From contig NQJD01000002.1 of NCBI GenBank assembly GCA_004284765.1, positions 30,001 through 62,000 of the forward strand: a DNA stretch of 32,000 nucleotides, in the 5' to 3' direction. How positions within the stretch are numbered: the stretch's first letter is position 1; every line of letters starts with the position of its first letter. The stretch is from Candidatus Electronema aureum. Lineage in GTDB: Bacteria; Desulfobacterota; Desulfobulbia; Desulfobulbales; Desulfobulbaceae. The notes under the pieces are model-generated. The model saw only the letters and a program-made list of their open reading frames with translations. It searched no databases and was not told where the DNA came from. The translations under genes and the position numbers were made by a program. Positions 1 to 24,497 of the stretch are shown here, piece by piece.

Positions 1-1924
1 AACCTGACATGAAGGCATTTTGCAACCCCATGTTATTTGCATTTTCCGACCATTCCTGCTCCATCATCCGCAGATAGATTTCAGGTCGAACCGGGAGATA
101 GGATGTAATGCGCCACCAATCATCTTCTTTTATATTCCTCCCGGAAACCCACGCATTGAACAACGCCAGATGAATTCCTTCCGGCCATTCCTTTTTACCA
201 AGCGCATGATAAAGAGCCATAGCGCAGATAGAAACTTTAATGTCCATATCCGGCTGCGGCTCTTGGAAATGCGCTATTACTTCAGCAAGATTATTTTGCG
301 CTTCCAGCGCATCTGCCACCTCATAAGCAAGCAGCAATCCCAGACCAAGAATCAGATAATCTCGGTTGATTGTCCATCCGCTACCATGTTTTTGAAGAAC
401 ACGGCCCGTACTTAACTCGGTCAGCAGAGAGTTGCTGTCACCATATCCAGATAGCTCAGTCTGCAATTCTCCCCGGAAAATTCTTTTGCTTTGCTGTATC
501 CGATTGCTTAGATTGCAGATCAATTCCTGAAATGCTTCGTGGCTCAAGGAATTACCCAGCTTGCGCTCTTGCTTATCCCGCCAGTCTTCGTAAATCAGAC
601 GCTCTCTGGTGATTTCGCCTTCGCTGTCCATGCGCTCCCACAGGCGTACAGTCAGATCAAAGTAGCGGGGAATACGAAGCAGATCGATGAGGTTTTTATC
701 AAAATGATCAGGAGTCAGATTCTTGACAGCAAGTGCCGACTTTAATTCCGCATCGTTGTATGGGCCTAATGTGAAGACAGCGGCTCCTACAGAAGACAGA
801 TGTTCATCCCAGAATTTTTTGCGGCAAGTCATCAGCACTGCTGTACGATTGCACCACGGTTCCACAGCAAATTTTGCCAAAAGCTGCCGCCATTCCATAT
901 CAGGACGCTCATTCAAGCCGTCCATGACAAGGAGAAAAAGCGGCGTGTCGCCAGCCGGACGTTCCAGCCAACGCTGCAACCGTTTCTGCCAGTATCCTTC
1001 GTATGGTTCTTTTAACTGCTTCGCAAGAATTTCAGGCAAGAGAATGTCAAATTCTTTTAAATCAGCCATTCCGGAGGGAAGGAAGATGACAGGAAAACCA
1101 TCTGACAGCTTGCCGTAGAGCCAATCTACAACCGCCCAGGTTTTGCCGTCGCCTTCTTCGCCAAGAACAACAAAAAACTTGTGCTGCTCATGCCAATTGG
1201 CAAACCAGTTGTCCAGAGCTTCCTGCGCTGCTTTGCGGGGAATGAAAAACTCTCCTTCAGCCCGCACCGCCAAGTTCTGTGAAAAGGCCGCTTTTGACTC
1301 ATCCTTATTCCGCAACCGTCCGCACAGCCAAGCATTTTGCTCTTCCAGCCAGTGATCATAACCGATATTCTGCGCGGCCAGCTCCTGCTTGAGTTTTTCA
1401 GACTTGTCCGAAACCTCTTTATTTTCTTTTAGTGATTGTAGATAGCTGGAAAATTCATCAGCTTCTTGTTTGTCAGCGAAATATTTTTGCAGATGCCTGA
1501 CGGTGATCTCCGGTGCATAAGCACATAATGCGGCAAGAAAGCTCTTCTCTTCCCCTTGAGCATCTATAGAAAAATAAGCAATCCCAGAGTCCTGACTGAA
1601 TTGCCGAAGTGGATTATGATGCTGGTCACTCAACCGCTTGGTGGTGACAACCATCCAAAGATCAGGCTTTAAACTGTTCTGGGCGGCAGCGGTGAATTTA
1701 GCTAACAGCTCATCACTTTTGAGCTTTGTTGCATCATCGTATCTTTTGCATTCCGCCATCAAGAAATTGCTGGCCATGTCCCGGCCTCCCTGATCGCCTG
1801 AACGCGAAAGATGAAAACGCTGCCCGGTCAGCCGCTCAAGCAGCTTGGCGACAAGTCCTTCAAAGCCATCCTGTCCGGCGGCGGGCTGTTTCCAGATGAT
1901 TTGCAGAAATTGTTCAAAATTCAT
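1..1924 (-). CDS. Partial CDS (C-terminus lies beyond the left edge): Mrr-like PD-(D/E)xK nuclease fused to a NACHT/STAND P-loop NTPase, of the Avs/bNACHT-like antiviral type
   Basis: Not in the supplied ORF track because it has no stop codon in the window. I checked every in-frame triplet (plus-strand positions 2-4, 5-7 and so on) from 2 to 2044 and found no TTA, CTA or TCA. ATG at 1924 gives MNFEQFLQ; an alternative ATG lies at 1987. Nuclease motif GGRD (1778-1789) ... ECKRY (1739-1753). Walker A GEEGDGKT (1139-1162). Walker B VMDGLNE (908-928). This is followed by AVLMTCRKKFW, which resembles the NACHT TSR motif. Confidence 0.75.
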   Translation of the reverse strand, partial: MNFEQFLQIIWKQPAAGQDGFEGLVAKLLERLTGQRFHLSRSGDQGGRDMASNFLMAECKRYDDATKLKSDELLAKFTAAAQNSLKPDLWMVVTTKRLSDQHHNPLRQFSQDSGIAYFSIDAQGEEKSFLAALCAYAPEITVRHLQKYFADKQEADEFSSYLQSLKENKEVSDKSEKLKQELAAQNIGYDHWLEEQNAWLCGRLRNKDESKAAFSQNLAVRAEGEFFIPRKAAQEALDNWFANWHEQHKFFVVLGEEGDGKTWAVVDWLYGKLSDGFPVIFLPSGMADLKEFDILLPEILAKQLKEPYEGYWQKRLQRWLERPAGDTPLFLLVMDGLNERPDMEWRQLLAKFAVEPWCNRTAVLMTCRKKFWDEHLSSVGAAVFTLGPYNDAELKSALAVKNLTPDHFDKNLIDLLRIPRYFDLTVRLWERMDSEGEITRERLIYEDWRDKQERKLGNSLSHEAFQELICNLSNRIQQSKRIFRGELQTELSGYGDSNSLLTELSTGRVLQKHGSGWTINRDYLILGLGLLLAYEVADALEAQNNLAEVIAHFQEPQPDMDIKVSICAMALYHALGKKEWPEGIHLALFNAWVSGRNIKEDDWWRITSYLPVRPEIYLRMMEQEWSENANNMGLQNAFMSG

Positions 1925-2108
1925 AGCTGGTGAGCGAATAGATGATTCCTGACAGCAAGAGAGACTGACGGCAAGCCATCCTATCATGTGGCGGCAGGCA
2001 GGGCAACGTGTCTTTTTCGTTGCCGCGCAAGAGGACGCGCAGTATCATGAAGAATGCAACATTCTGGAAGAAATGCGAAATTCTTATTCACTGGCCCACG
2101 AGAAAACT

Positions 2109-3350
2109 ATGCGCACAGCAGAACTCCTAGAAATCATCCGCAACGGCGAGAACTCCGGCGTGGAATTCAAACGGGACGACATCCGCCCGGAACAGCTGGC
2201 AAAGGAGATTGTGGCCTTGGCCAACCTTCAGGGCGGGCGGGTGCTGCTCGGCGTGGAAGACAACGGTGCTGTGACCGGCATCAGGCGGCCTGACCTACAG
2301 GAATGGGTGCTGAATGTGTTCCGCGACAAGGTGCATCCGCAAATTATCCCGTTCTACGAGGAAATGGAGCTTGAGGAAGGCTGCCGGGTCGCTGTGGTCT
2401 CGCTGTCGCCTGGCATTGCCAAACCCTATGTGCTCCGGCATAACGGTCGGGAGGATGTGTACATCCGCATGGGCGACCGCTCTGAATTGGCGACAAGAGA
2501 ACAGCAACTTCGTCTCTTCCAAAGCGGAGGAATGCTCCATGTGGAGACCCTGCCTGTTGCCGGAACCTCGATAGACTTTCTGGATTTAGACCGGCTCAAC
2601 TTTTATCTCGCCTCCATCATCGAAGACCCAGAGCTGCCGGTCAGCAGGGAGCAGTGGATTGAACGCCTGCTCGGGCTGGGCCTGATGGCTGAGGACGGAT
2701 TGGGGAACAAAGTCTGCTCCATTGCCGGGCTGGTCTGCTTCGGCATCCGGCCACGCCGCTATCTGCCCCAGGCCGGTCTGCGGCTCATGGTCTTCGACGG
2801 GAAGGACAAGGAATATCAGGCCCGTCTCGACACTGTGCTGGACGGCCCGCTCGCTGGCCGCTGGCGCATGATCGCCGGGCAGCGGGAGCTGGTTGACCGG
2901 GGCGTGATTGAGCAGTTCGCCGCCGCGATTCAGCCGTTCATCTCCTGCGAGGAGGCGGACGTGGACGAGACCATGCGGCGCGGCAAAGAATTCTTCTATC
3001 CGTGGCAGGCGGTGCGGGAGACGGTGATCAACGCCTTGGCGCACCGCGACTGGTCGCGGTCAGTGGATGTTGAAGTTAGCAGCTATGCGGACCGGCTGGA
3101 GGTCATCAGTCCGGGCGCGCTGCAAAACTCCATGACCGTAGCCAAAATGATCGCCGGACAGCGTTCGCCCCGTAATCCCTTGATCATGGAGATTCTACGC
3201 GATTACGGCTATGTTGACGCGAGAGGAATGGGCGTGCGCACCAAAGTCATTCCCCTGATGCGGCAGCACAACGGCGCGGAGCCGGTCTTTGAGGCCAGCG
3301 AGGACTGTTTGAAAATTGTCCTGCCAAAGAGAAAGCATAATCGAAACTGA
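2109..3350 (+). CDS. AlbA_2 (divergent AAA / Schlafen-type) N-terminal domain plus HATPase_c_4 C-terminal domain; putative ATP-binding or DNA-binding protein of unknown function
   Basis: The track ORF is 1986..3350. The probable start is ATG 2109 (MRTAELLEII), or ATG 2073. N-terminal ENSGVEFKRD...LAKEIVALANLQGGRVLLGVEDNGAVTGI is the AlbA_2 signature. C-terminal RETVINALAHRDWS...YADRLEVISPGAL...RNPLI...GMGV matches the HATPase_c_4 pattern. Confidence 0.7.
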   Translation: MRTAELLEIIRNGENSGVEFKRDDIRPEQLAKEIVALANLQGGRVLLGVEDNGAVTGIRRPDLQEWVLNVFRDKVHPQIIPFYEEMELEEGCRVAVVSLSPGIAKPYVLRHNGREDVYIRMGDRSELATREQQLRLFQSGGMLHVETLPVAGTSIDFLDLDRLNFYLASIIEDPELPVSREQWIERLLGLGLMAEDGLGNKVCSIAGLVCFGIRPRRYLPQAGLRLMVFDGKDKEYQARLDTVLDGPLAGRWRMIAGQRELVDRGVIEQFAAAIQPFISCEEADVDETMRRGKEFFYPWQAVRETVINALAHRDWSRSVDVEVSSYADRLEVISPGALQNSMTVAKMIAGQRSPRNPLIMEILRDYGYVDARGMGVRTKVIPLMRQHNGAEPVFEASEDCLKIVLPKRKHNRN

Positions 3351-3351
3351 C

Positions 3352-3927
3352 TTGCTAAACAGATACTCCCACAGCAAGGCAACTTGCTCTCCTTGAGTGA
3401 TTGAGTTGGTTGCAACGAAAGCGGCGGCAATGGGCTTGCCTACAATCAATGTATTGCGCCGCCTTAACGAACCAGTTGGCAACAAAATCTAAATCAGAGC
3501 CACTTCTGATCTCGTGCATGACAAGAAGCTGATCAGAACGCTGCTCCTCGTTTTGATAATGCTTCCCGCCAAACGGCGGATTGCCCATGATGTAACCGGA
3601 AACAAGGAGGTAACGCGGCAGCTCGCGCTCCTTCAGGCCGGGGAAGTAGCCAAGGGCTTGCTCGTGGGCGCGGTCAAGGTCTTTGCCCCGCGATTTATGC
3701 TCGATCAGCAGCTTGCCCTTCCAGAGCAGGTCAATGTAGCCCTCGCGGCCATCAATCTTCCGCACCCGCTGCTCAAAGCTGGCAACTCTGCGGCGGTCAA
3801 TCCCGAAGATGTGGAAGAACGCATTCCAGAAGGTCTTCGCCTCCGCGTCTTCAGACACCTCGTCTGCCCAGTCGCGGGAGAAGGAAAGGGCGCGGGATTT
3901 TATCTCATTCCAGCTGAGTGGGGGCAT
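3352..3927 (-). pseudogene. Remnant of an MmeI-like type IIG/IIL restriction-modification enzyme (N-terminal nuclease domain joined to the NPPF methylase motif, frameshifted and 3'-truncated)
   Basis: ORF 3355..3927 begins LSWNEIKSRALSFSRDWADE...AEAKTFWNAFFHIFG and contains IDLLWKGKLLIEHK, a D-X9-E-X-K motif as in MmeI. At about 3597 it jumps straight to GNPPFGG (3571-3600). The next conserved block, AAFVATNSITQGEQVALLWEYLF, is in a different frame (ORF 3195..3485). Homology stops at about 3352, abutting the stop codon of the convergent gene at 3350. Confidence 0.65.
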
Positions 3928-3954
3928 GGCAAGGATGTGTCTTGAAAAACGACT

Positions 3955-12703: not shown

Positions 12704-13504
12704 ATGCTTTCCGCCCCTTCTTTTTTCGACCTAAGCGATTTTGACCACCGAGCAATTTTTCAGGACACTGTCCCGGCTTGGGACGCACTGAAGATGCTGA
12801 AAAGCTACATGAACGGGCTGGACTACGGTCTCTTCTGCCATGAGCATCTACAAAACGGTGTACCGTTGGCTTGTCCGCTCATTGTTCATAACGGAAAATT
12901 GCAGACAGCAGAAGGCTGCGCTATTACCTTTGGCGACGCAACCAAAGGCAAGCTGCGGGTTGTCCGTGAGGATCAAGAACTCAGCGGCGCGTCCGTGATT
13001 ATGGCCGGAGCAGTGATTATGGGCAGCAGAATCTTGCTTGGCAAAGGGGTTTTGATCGAATCCGGTGCCTTGATCAAAGAACCTGCGGTGATCGGCGACT
13101 GCACTGAAATACGGCAAGGGGCGTATCTGCGCGGCTACTGTTTGGCAGGTAAACGCTGCGTGCTTGGTCATGCCACTGAGGTTAAGCACTCCATTTTTCT
13201 CAATGATGCCAAGGCCGGGCATTTTGCCTATCTCGGCGATTCTATCCTCGGCAACGAAGCCAATCTTGGCGCAGGCACTAAGTTCGCCAATCTTCGCTTT
13301 TTACCCGGTAATGTTTCGATCAAAACACCAAGCGGCGTACTTGACAGCGGCTTGCGCAAATTCGGCGCAATCCTCGGCGACCGGGTGCAAACCGGCTGCA
13401 ACTCCGTCACAAACCCTGGCACCTTACTCGGCAAAGACAGCCTGCTTATGCCGAATACCACTGCGCCGTCTGGCTATCATTCACCCAAGTCAATGCTGCG
13501 GTGA
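12704..13504 (+). CDS. Left-handed beta-helix (hexapeptide-repeat) transferase, GlmU C-terminal-like
   Basis: Repeated [LIV]-G-x4 hexapeptide pattern (ILLGKGVLIESGALIKEPAVIGDCTEIRQGAYLRGYCLAGKRCVLGHATEV...LGDSILGNEANLGAGT). GAGG ribosome-binding site upstream of the ATG. Confidence 0.7.
   Translation: MLSAPSFFDLSDFDHRAIFQDTVPAWDALKMLKSYMNGLDYGLFCHEHLQNGVPLACPLIVHNGKLQTAEGCAITFGDATKGKLRVVREDQELSGASVIMAGAVIMGSRILLGKGVLIESGALIKEPAVIGDCTEIRQGAYLRGYCLAGKRCVLGHATEVKHSIFLNDAKAGHFAYLGDSILGNEANLGAGTKFANLRFLPGNVSIKTPSGVLDSGLRKFGAILGDRVQTGCNSVTNPGTLLGKDSLLMPNTTAPSGYHSPKSMLR
13457..13504 (+). repeat. Direct repeat copy 1, the functional 3' end of the hexapeptide-repeat gene (TTAPSGYHSPKSMLR*)
   Basis: 39/48 nt identical to 14328-14375, including perfect blocks ggctatcat and aagtcaatgctgcggt. 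Confidence 0.85.
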
Positions 13505-13533
13505 ATGATGAAAATTCAAAAATAGGATTCAAG

Positions 13534-14274
13534 ATGAATCATCTTTCACAGCTTATTGCAGCTTATCTGAGTTATTACTTATCAATATGCTGTTTGATTC
13601 TTATTCCAATTCAGGGTGATTGCGCAAGTTCATCATTGCGACCCGGTAAGTACATCTATGAAGGTGGATATGGCGAATTGACTATCAAACGAGAACTAAA
13701 TGGAAAACTTACATTCTCAATAGGTACTATTTTTCGATTCATGGTTTTTATGCCAGTATGCGGTCTTGATGGGCAACTTGAAGGAAACAAGAGTATTATT
13801 ACAATTTCTGAGGAGATGGAAGGCATCAAGGATGGTCTTTGCATTGTGAATTTTTCTTATACTTCTGACGGAATCAATGTTGACAGCAGTAATTGTGACT
13901 ATTTTTGTGGAACTAATGGTAGCTTTGATGGACTTTACCTGAAACCAGCTATCGGTTGCAAAGCTAATGAAATTAGTCGCTCCCGTAAAAAATTCAAGCA
14001 GCTTTATGACCATAAGGATTTTGACAAGGCATATGCAGTTCTATCACCCGTACTGAAGAACTGTGAGCGAGTCTTAGCAATGGAGGATGCCGGATGGATT
14101 CGAAATGATATAGCTATAACAGAATATCAGATGGGTCATTATAGTGATTGCATAGAGACGTTAATCCCTCTTGTTAAGGAACAAGAATTTTTGACAGAAA
14201 GTTACGAGCCTATCATTAACGCGACTCGATTCAATATGGGATTGTGCCGTGAAGGTGATAGTCATGATGAATGA
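13534..14274 (+). CDS. Hypothetical secreted/exported Cys-rich protein (orphan) in an AT-rich cassette
   Basis: The track ORF is 13501..14274. The likely start is ATG 13534 (MNHLSQLIAAYLSYYLSICCLILIPIQGDCASS), a hydrophobic signal-like N-terminus. I recognised no family. Confidence 0.5.
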   Translation: MNHLSQLIAAYLSYYLSICCLILIPIQGDCASSSLRPGKYIYEGGYGELTIKRELNGKLTFSIGTIFRFMVFMPVCGLDGQLEGNKSIITISEEMEGIKDGLCIVNFSYTSDGINVDSSNCDYFCGTNGSFDGLYLKPAIGCKANEISRSRKKFKQLYDHKDFDKAYAVLSPVLKNCERVLAMEDAGWIRNDIAITEYQMGHYSDCIETLIPLVKEQEFLTESYEPIINATRFNMGLCREGDSHDE

Positions 14275-23510: not shown

Positions 23511-24497
23511 TCAGCTTGACGAGGTAAACTTATTCACACTGAACCGCTGCAATACTCGGTCTTTGTCCTTGGTGCCATCATAGGCGATGATGAGTTGATA
23601 TGCCGACTTCTGCTCTTCTATCACAGCCATTCCTTCAATCTTTTCTTTGCGCGGTGGTTCAATTTCTCCCAAGAGATGGAGCGTGCCAACCTCTTTCTTG
23701 CTCCGATCTTTGCCGGAAACCGTATCTTTGCCGTCCCAATGCAGAACCTGATAGGAATCAGATCCGCCTCCGATGGGTCCGGCTAAAATCAAAAAGCCGT
23801 CAGATACTATAGCAAGATCACGGATACCGCGCCCGCCTAATTGTACATAAAGCAGCGCATAGGTTGTTTCTGGATCGTCAAAGCGCAGCTTCATCACCGG
23901 GACATAATTATCCCGGAATACCGGCCCTCTAAAACCAACATACAGCCAGCCGTCCTTAGCCGCAATGCCTTCAATGTTAATCCCGTTCTCCTTAGCGGGA
24001 ATCTCGCAGAAGGCTTTCAATGCCGGGTCATTCATGAGAATTTTTCGCAGACTAATCATGTTCTTGTCGATTTCATTCCCCTTGGCATCTAATCTAATAC
24101 GGTACAACCAGTCGCGACTGCTCTTCTTTTCAATCTTGTCGATATAGAACGTTGTTTGATTTTCCTTGTACGTGTTGTTTAAACTAAGCCTTTCCCTTCG
24201 TGCAGAATGGGAACCGATGACATAGACACAATCGCCTTCCGTGCAGATGCCTTCAATATCCATCTCGTTGCCTTCATCGTTGCTCCCTTGGAACACGAGA
24301 ATATTATGCTGCACTTTGCAGCTGCCGTCTTTCTTTATTTTCAGCAATTGAATGCAGTTTGTCTTGTTGTCAGTTCCCGTGCCTTCATCGGAGCCAATAA
24401 TCAGGAAGTCATTCAATGTGGTGACTGCGCTGACATTCTTCACTGCCACAATATCACCTGATATTTTTATAAAAGAACCGGGAGTTGCGGTATCCAT
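23511..24497 (-). CDS. DUF3616/phytase-like beta-propeller-type protein (function unknown)
   Basis: Recurrent (D/N)IEG(I/M) motifs (MDIEGICTEG, INIEGIAAKDGWLYVGFRGPV, KIEGMAVIEE) and LIIGSDEG. The family assignment is from memory of motif patterns only. Confidence 0.55.
   Translation of the reverse strand: MDTATPGSFIKISGDIVAVKNVSAVTTLNDFLIIGSDEGTGTDNKTNCIQLLKIKKDGSCKVQHNILVFQGSNDEGNEMDIEGICTEGDCVYVIGSHSARRERLSLNNTYKENQTTFYIDKIEKKSSRDWLYRIRLDAKGNEIDKNMISLRKILMNDPALKAFCEIPAKENGINIEGIAAKDGWLYVGFRGPVFRDNYVPVMKLRFDDPETTYALLYVQLGGRGIRDLAIVSDGFLILAGPIGGGSDSYQVLHWDGKDTVSGKDRSKKEVGTLHLLGEIEPPRKEKIEGMAVIEEQKSAYQLIIAYDGTKDKDRVLQRFSVNKFTSSS

Follow-up and report, generated by a model that had tools for sequence, protein, structure and literature searches.

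The left end of a 32,000-nucleotide stretch of DNA from Candidatus Electronema aureum (contig NQJD01000002.1 of GenBank assembly GCA_004284765.1, positions 30,001–62,000; hereafter the window) carries the 5' part of CDV28_10229, a gene whose product is listed in the databases as a hypothetical protein. Candidatus Electronema aureum is a freshwater cable bacterium. We present evidence that this product, which combines a predicted Mrr-type nuclease, a NACHT-type STAND NTPase and a long helical solenoid, is likely to be an NLR-like antiviral protein.

When the minus strand was translated over window positions 2–2104, a stop codon was found at 2047–2045, after which the frame remains open from 2044 to position 2. 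The ATG at 1924–1922, which opens the sequence MNFEQF..., places 641 codons inside the window (2–1924, minus strand). All of these (641/641, 100%) are identical to residues 1–641 of the 1,572-residue database protein (P0183 in our numbering), the window's share of the gene being ∼41%. Extension of the contig to the left recovered the complete, intact gene (L078:1720–6438, where L078 is our locus on the source contig), with ∼2.8 kb lying past the left edge of the window. An earlier reading of the letters by a model (the original prediction) had described a minus-strand frame without a stop from the window edge to 2044; this proved exact to the base, and no misread stop or frameshift came to light. 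The list of open reading frames (ORFs) that accompanied the DNA omits the gene because it runs off the source sequence, and shows instead short TTG- or GTG-started plus-strand ORFs at 20–1355. As the same prediction had held, these are antisense shadows of CDV28_10229, and the annotation should be corrected, since it gives short antisense ORFs where the true one, which runs over the edge, was overlooked. Both the ORF and its family matches are far beyond chance.

We regard 1924 as the likelier start because the more distant homologs begin at the position equivalent to MNFEQF. A second in-frame ATG (1987–1985) lies 63 nt upstream and overlaps the ATG (1986–1988) of the neighbouring gene on the opposite strand; an upstream in-frame ATG with the identical 63-nt offset is also found in two related loci, L008 (at 9938) and L007 (at 909). 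The divergent intergenic region between the two genes, read directly from the sequence, is 61 bp long (1925–1985). It contains no sigma-70-like promoter match, the sole promoter-like site within 1700–2300 being at 2020–2048 on the plus strand, and no strong Shine–Dalgarno sequence precedes the ATG at 1924 within it.

Domain structure of CDV28_10229

The centre of the protein is a NACHT-type STAND NTPase, in which a nucleotide-binding domain, a helical domain and a winged-helix domain (NBD–HD–WHD) are combined with intact Walker A, Walker B and sensor-1 motifs. The nucleotide-binding domain occupies residues 250–400 (725–1177; all features of the gene are on the minus strand) and was delimited by Pfam matches, conservation and Foldseek. 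It is separated from the N-terminal effector by a helical linker (residues 129–247, DSSP helices throughout; 1184–1540) and is followed by the helical and winged-helix domains (residues 401–520; 365–724), delimited by DSSP and conservation, in which DSSP gives helices over 410–506 and a beta-hairpin at 510–519. The latter region includes a PRY motif (residues 419–421) conserved in the 225 members aligned (P419 in 224, R420 in 217 and Y421 in 205).

In the translation, Walker A reads GEEGDGKT (residues 255–262; 1162–1139), Walker B LLVMDGLNE (residues 331–339; 934–908) and sensor-1 MTCRK (residues 365–369; 832–818). All three had been located to the correct nucleotides when a P-loop NTPase with NACHT-style motifs was first claimed, and the homologs and the predicted fold agree with that claim. 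Walker A conforms to GxxxxGK[ST], with K261 present in all 225 members and G260 in 224; Walker B conforms to the extended pattern hhhhDG-x-[DN]-E (D335 225/225, G336 211/225, N338 219/225, E339 214/225); and the sensor-1 arginine, R368, is found in 220 members. The window copy keeps every conserved residue of these motifs. Classical NACHT proteins have D at the Walker B position where this family has N.

Matches to NACHT at E ≤ 0.01 were obtained for 25 of 40 aligned homologs (best 2.4e-9), and both the homologs and CDV28_10229 bear the name ‘NACHT domain-containing protein’ in NCBI and UniRef. An AlphaFold2 model of the 641 residues (predicted local distance difference test, pLDDT, 86.6; predicted template modelling score, pTM, 0.83) was confident outside a loop at residues 42–51. 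Searched against the PDB with Foldseek, as had been proposed at the outset, it gave Avs4 (8dgf) as its top match (E = 3.6e-8), aligned over 608 columns and covering nearly the whole query from the effector through the STAND NTPase; Avs3, NOD2, NLRP9, NAIP/NLRC4 and CED-4 followed, all with probability 1.00. The model, the Foldseek matches and R368 together place the NBD–HD–WHD fold with that of NLRs. We base the domain assignments on homologs, conserved motifs and structure, the window copy itself being below the Pfam thresholds; in the Pfam check that had been suggested, the better matches came from the homologs. In the window fragment, nSTAND3 was another sub-threshold Pfam match, and an NCBIfam search of the fragment gave no match.

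The N-terminus (residues 1–125; 1550–1924) is predicted to be an Mrr-type PD-(D/E)xK nuclease with its catalytic residues intact, an assignment made from Pfam matches of homologs, conservation and the secondary structure of the model. The catalytic residues are E22 (1861–1859), D49 (1780–1778) and E58-x-K60, here E58-C-K60 (1753–1745); for D49 and the E-x-K pair, the nucleotides originally assigned to a restriction-endonuclease core were exact. The gathering score of Mrr_cat (PF04471), 21, was passed by seven of 10 family N-termini, with 21.5–28.9 bits over profile positions 6–101 of 115, and Mrr_cat matches were obtained for 14 of 30 isolated N-terminal domains at E ≤ 0.01 and for 12 of 40 aligned relatives. 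Within the 225-member set, E22 is kept in 193 of 200 members, D49 in 197 of 208, E58 in 180 of 196 and K60 in 188 of 195, that is, in at least 92% of those bearing the domain; in our N-terminal alignment (A2), E22, G43, Q45, D49 and K60 are invariant. All the catalytic residues are retained in the window copy, and with them the constellation expected in the Mrr register (helix-E ... D ... (E/Q)-x-K). The secondary structure of the model fits an alpha-beta-beta-beta-alpha-beta core, and comparison by eye with EcoKMrr revealed the same order and spacing of motifs (the FE helix, G-D-G-G-x-D and [Q/E]-x-K-R-[W/Y]).

Residues 521–641 (2–364) form the start of a C-terminal alpha-solenoid, the presumed sensor, as judged from homolog loci and a model. 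The remainder, ∼930–940 residues, lies off the window; in most of the 71 genome loci examined the corresponding region comes straight after the N-terminal part, and the usual form of the family there, and in the exhaustive profile search described below, is a single ORF of ∼1,480–1,600 aa. The helical region that had been noticed running off the window does therefore continue, for ∼930 more residues, and is an alpha-solenoid in the homolog model. This model, of the C-terminal-only homolog P0193 (pLDDT 86.4, pTM 0.86), is nearly all-helical. Its PDB matches were generic HEAT/ARM solenoids (karyopherins, CAND1) with a template modelling score of ∼0.2, and no Avs3, Avs4 or Avs5 chain was among the top 50, the PDB searched including 8dgf. 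Neither Pfam nor PADLOC gave a match to the C-terminal region. Its sequence identity across very distant phyla is 20–30%. We conclude that, as modelled, the sensor is of a common helical-repeat type, but does not appear to be the Avs4 sensor.

A separate partner gene downstream, considered at loci L002, L003 and L005, was discarded, as the ORF in question is the C-terminal region of the family itself, fused in most loci. In ∼10 loci (among them L002, L003, L005/L006, L024, L027, L029, L040, L055 and L056) two ORFs take the place of one, the break falling at varying positions (e.g. 637 + 905, 924 + 679 and 918 + 627 aa). A Nostoc member of 1,111 aa (P0011) falls in one 90% cluster with a 1,558-aa form (P0040). 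The split forms could be frameshifts, assembly errors, secondary splits or genuine decay.

Distribution of the family and exchange of its effector

In an exhaustive profile search of 1.84 billion representatives, 1,093 clusters (at 50% identity) were matched at E ≤ 1e-30, and the number rose to 2,166 at E ≤ 1e-3. A word-indexed protein search had given only 39 relatives, none of them of full length (∼1,550 aa); to judge the family rare from that search alone would have been wrong, as the >1,000 clusters of the exhaustive search, mostly of full length, made clear. The nearest genomic relatives are in cable bacteria and other Desulfobulbaceae (L008, 88% identity; L007, 80%). Members occur in Desulfobulbaceae, Beggiatoa and other Thiotrichales, many cyanobacteria, Chloroflexi, Acidobacteriota, Poribacteria, Alpha- and Betaproteobacteria and relatives of Geobacter. 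A megablast of window positions 1–3400 against E. coli genomes gave no match.

The family seemed to us conspicuously frequent in filamentous or multicellular bacteria, an impression from the listing of loci L007–L077 that carries no enrichment statistic. Such hosts include cable bacteria, Beggiatoa, other Thiotrichales, Nostoc, Calothrix, Westiellopsis, Coleofasciculus, Anaerolineae, Ca. Amarolinea and Ca. Vecturithrix. It was also encountered often in Poribacteria and Acidobacteriota.

The Mrr-type motif is present in ∼87% of the 225 members (D49 in 197/225). In some members the effector has been exchanged, and TIR_2, a caspase-like Peptidase_C14 or CHAT stands in place of Mrr; these variants are homologous to CDV28_10229 from query residue ∼190–197 onwards, which puts the point of exchange near residue 190, in the helical linker. 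Such exchange of effectors on a constant chassis of switch plus sensor is typical of antiviral STAND proteins. In the CHAT variant a protease domain of ∼350 aa replaces Mrr (P0123 and P0125 are among the effector-swapped members), and at L082 (7586–7930, 8001–12845) a Peptidase_C14 member is accompanied by a divergently transcribed Trypco1 gene.

The effector bears directly on whether the family serves defence at all. Defence and non-defence clades are interspersed in the STAND phylogeny of Lee et al. (Nature 2026), and a regulatory or housekeeping signalling ATPase, with a nuclease-like domain unconnected with immunity, would be in keeping with the position of several homologs among metabolic genes, with the lack of any relative on 2.9 million viral contigs, and with the lack of a PADLOC match (see below). 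We nevertheless consider such a role very improbable. Conservation of the nuclease's catalytic residues extends across the family; the N-terminus is swapped for TIR, caspase and CHAT, all of them effectors of conflict systems; in cable bacteria the gene adjoins restriction–modification and other defence genes; and the best structural match is Avs4. Lee et al. (2026) class a clade as defensive when at least 50% of its members have an annotated immune effector domain; the ∼87% of members with Mrr, and the remainder with TIR_2, Peptidase_C14 or CHAT, place the present family above that level.

Relationship to known antiviral STAND proteins

Avs4 is the nearest known protein in structure, and its chain (1,541 aa in 8dgf) is similar in length to CDV28_10229 (1,572 aa). 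Avs4 reportedly begins with an Mrr-like nuclease and has a large helical sensor. However, its sequence identity to the window fragment is only 14%, and it senses the phage portal (8dgf is Avs4 bound to a phage portal), whereas the sensor of the CDV28_10229 family matches generic HEAT/ARM repeats. The Avs4 sequence models of PADLOC gave no match to the fragment, to the 40 alignment members or, at E ≤ 0.1, to six full-length members. With neither the sequence models nor the fold of the C-terminal sensor in agreement, membership of Avs4 was rejected. Membership of Avs2 was likewise rejected: its models matched eight of the 40 partial members weakly (best 3.7e-6) and none of the six full-length ones.

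The same layout has been described in bNACHT25, which, according to Kibby et al. (2023), is a single-gene antiphage system with an N-terminal Mrr-like restriction endonuclease fused to NACHT. We liken the two by layout alone. They differ in that the C-terminal solenoid of the CDV28_10229 family is much longer (∼930 aa), and in their hosts, Enterobacteriaceae in the one case and environmental, largely filamentous bacteria in the other. Lee et al. (2026) describe 589 clades, 684 sensor clusters and the systems Avs7–24; compared with their description, the present family shares with defence STAND proteins the order effector, STAND NTPase and helical-repeat sensor of at least 400 aa, as well as the exchange of effectors within one sensor family. 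The likeness extends to NOD2, NLRP9, NAIP/NLRC4 and CED-4/Apaf-1, with which the protein has in common the NBD–HD–WHD core (Foldseek E 1e-6 to 1e-5) and the logic of Walker A, Walker B and sensor-1. These eukaryotic proteins have CARD, PYD or BIR effectors rather than a nuclease, and leucine-rich repeat or WD40 sensors rather than a HEAT/ARM-like solenoid, and their sequence identity is only 12–15%.

The domains, the fold match to Avs4 and the solenoid model thus agree with the original prediction that the nuclease–STAND–sensor layout is that of Avs and bNACHT proteins. Its further suggestion that the fusion may be an undescribed variant did not survive, since a fusion of Mrr-like restriction endonuclease and NACHT is already validated in bNACHT25 and Avs4 aligns over most of the fragment. 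We conclude that CDV28_10229 represents an uncharacterised family of a known kind, the nearest catalogues having been compared by description. The concept is unchanged, as effector, STAND switch and helical-repeat sensor are the canonical design; what the family adds to the known NLR-like immune sensors of bacteria is a well-populated group (>1,000 clusters at 50% identity) with a sensor that PADLOC v2 and Pfam do not recognize.

The divergent neighbour and the defence island

On the other side of the 61-bp spacer lies a gene for a 454-residue protein with SLFN_AlbA_2 and HATPase_c_4 domains (1986–3350, plus strand; Pfam 7e-20 and 1.6e-17), which the NACHT gene had been proposed to be paired with. 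Obligate pairing of the two genes, whether or not MmeI takes part, would account for the retention of the divergent layout and its spacer in the window (L078), L008 and L007. In the latter two the neighbour has orthologs of 91–94% identity at the equivalent position, and is more conserved there than the NACHT protein (80–88%); in addition, of two remote AlbA_2 paralogs, in L020 and L026, that in L026 is directly downstream of the NACHT homolog. The wider comparison makes such pairing most unlikely. The neighbour is absent beside intact NACHT orthologs in Ca. Electrothrix scaldis (L079, 78%) and at L081 (73%), and from ∼70 other loci. When the 1,261 ORFs flanking the gene at 76 loci were clustered without bias, no partner family recurred in more than seven loci, and the AlbA_2 family was present in three; the largest cluster consisted of generic two-component signalling proteins. 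The three loci that share the neighbour are close relatives that also share MmeI, for which inherited synteny suffices, and the copy in L008 seems to be disrupted (longest ORF 331 aa, with two tblastn segments). Because of its absence from L079, L081 and the ∼70 other loci, and its presence in only 3/76 of the clustered ones, we take the adjacency, on these sequence comparisons, to be inherited local synteny and the neighbour to be a passenger of the island rather than a conserved partner. Its higher conservation would fit faster evolution of an immune sensor.

Beyond the AlbA_2 gene, and before rnhB, there is a decayed remnant (190 aa; 3355–3927, minus strand) of an MmeI-family, type IIL restriction–modification gene, recognized by MmeI_N (3.9e-23) and a fragment of MmeI_Mtase, which marks the inner edge of a small defence island. 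On the source contig (L078), a second MmeI gene starts 19 bp past the NACHT stop, and its first 314 bp (L078:6455–6768) have 85.7% DNA identity to window positions 3929–3616. The AlbA_2 and NACHT genes are bracketed by direct repeats of the MmeI 5' end. In L008 a full MmeI (921 aa) occupies the same relative position upstream of the NACHT gene and a 95-aa MmeI remnant lies downstream; in L007 the contig ends within the AlbA_2 gene upstream, and a truncated MmeI follows downstream; in L081 a 60-bp MmeI remnant is upstream and a full MmeI downstream. The simplest reading is an ancestral island of the order MmeI-A, AlbA_2, NACHT, MmeI-B that decayed differently in each lineage.

In cable bacteria the NACHT gene adjoins MmeI restriction–modification, ABC-3C, pYEATS and OLD-like genes, and the flank clustering showed that type I restriction–modification subunits recur at several other loci of the family. 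The G + C content of the NACHT portion (window 1–2000) is ∼48%, compared with 56–59% for the adjacent AlbA_2 gene and MmeI remnant. As an indication of foreign origin the low value is weak, since G + C varies from 44 to 62% over the whole window.

Proposed mode of action

We think it likely that CDV28_10229 is an antiviral STAND protein of the NLR-like Avs/bNACHT type which works as a single-gene system, and which would answer a phage protein or a disturbed host factor by oligomerization and DNA cleavage. Its solenoid would keep the protein auto-inhibited until a trigger binds, most probably a conserved phage protein and possibly a perturbed host factor. Binding would then lead to ATP-dependent oligomerization through the NACHT module, which would bring the Mrr domains together; the juxtaposed domains would cleave DNA indiscriminately and abort the infection at the cost of the cell. 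We consider the protein to be a single-gene system because no flanking family recurs in more than 7/76 loci, and the AlbA_2/HATPase_c_4 gene and MmeI remnants would then be co-resident genes of the island. The steps are inferred from Avs3/Avs4 and bNACHT25.

Several observations weigh against this interpretation. What triggers the protein, how it oligomerizes and whether it cleaves DNA are all matters of inference. PADLOC v2 models (Avs1–5 and NLR-like), run on the fragment and the six full-length members as the original prediction had proposed, gave no match. The fragment falls short of Pfam NACHT (PF05729; residues 251–376, 17.5 bits with a cut-off of 26.7, E = 0.004) and of Mrr_cat_2 (12.9 bits with a cut-off of 22, E = 0.1), and its N-terminal 130 aa had no Pfam match at E ≤ 0.01. 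Against PDB sequences, the whole-family profile found only P-loop noise (for example the phage terminase 4ife, E = 0.011) and the nuclease-domain profile nothing meaningful. A comparison of the nuclease profile with EcoKMrr by hhalign and hmmsearch was not significant, the hhalign match being misregistered over 16 columns; because the single-sequence template was too weak, we give this result no weight against the assignment. The low-confidence loop of the model (residues 42–51) is the one that carries D49. Finally, homologs at L001, L003 and L079 lie among housekeeping genes and not in obvious defence islands.

The nature of the trigger can be viewed differently. With the same architecture and output, the solenoid might monitor a host factor or process that infection disturbs, as bNACHT25, of the same Mrr-type endonuclease and NACHT layout, senses phage through the host chaperone DnaJ (PLoS Biol 2025). 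The conservation of the sensor at 20–30% across very distant phyla would suit a conserved host ligand, and the sensor resembles no solved phage-protein-binding sensor of an Avs protein. Yet among characterised Avs families in which the sensor is a large helical repeat, most recognise a conserved phage protein by direct binding, and no gene for a host partner is conserved near the 76 loci. We therefore regard surveillance of a host component as unlikely, though a good deal less so than a non-defensive role or an obligate pair, and direct binding of a phage protein as the likelier of two modes that both fit the present observations.

More tentatively, the ∼930-residue solenoid, which ends in a conserved Trp-rich motif (...WAHHWFERF...AWAAFRLFLRCVDRRFWLW), could be a class of sensor outside all Avs families to which a trigger has been assigned, in which case its ligand would be a phage or host component that no sensor is yet known to recognise. 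The frequency of the family in filamentous multicellular bacteria could reflect altruistic cell death that protects the filament. We offer this as a possibility that falls somewhat short of an even chance. Identification of the trigger would extend the map of phage and host components that bacteria survey. We found no paper on antiviral defence in cable bacteria in the literature, and CDV28_10229 is the first concrete candidate for an immune gene in these organisms.

The remainder of the window

Elsewhere the window consists of ordinary chromosome, with rnhB, an RNA methyltransferase gene, trmD, rimM, ffh, a fabD-like gene, lon and an era-like gene, together with genes for phosphoglucomutase, a sigma-54 two-component pair, a SulP transporter, pyruvate carboxylase subunits and a Cys/Met pyridoxal phosphate enzyme. 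No tRNA genes or Rfam matches were found in it. A 257-aa ORF with no Pfam match (13501–14274, plus strand) overlaps the stop of the upstream hexapeptide-transferase gene, and a DUF3616 protein is encoded at 23511–24497 (minus strand) in a stretch of 44–47% G + C (20–24 kb), beside the SulP/STAS transporter.

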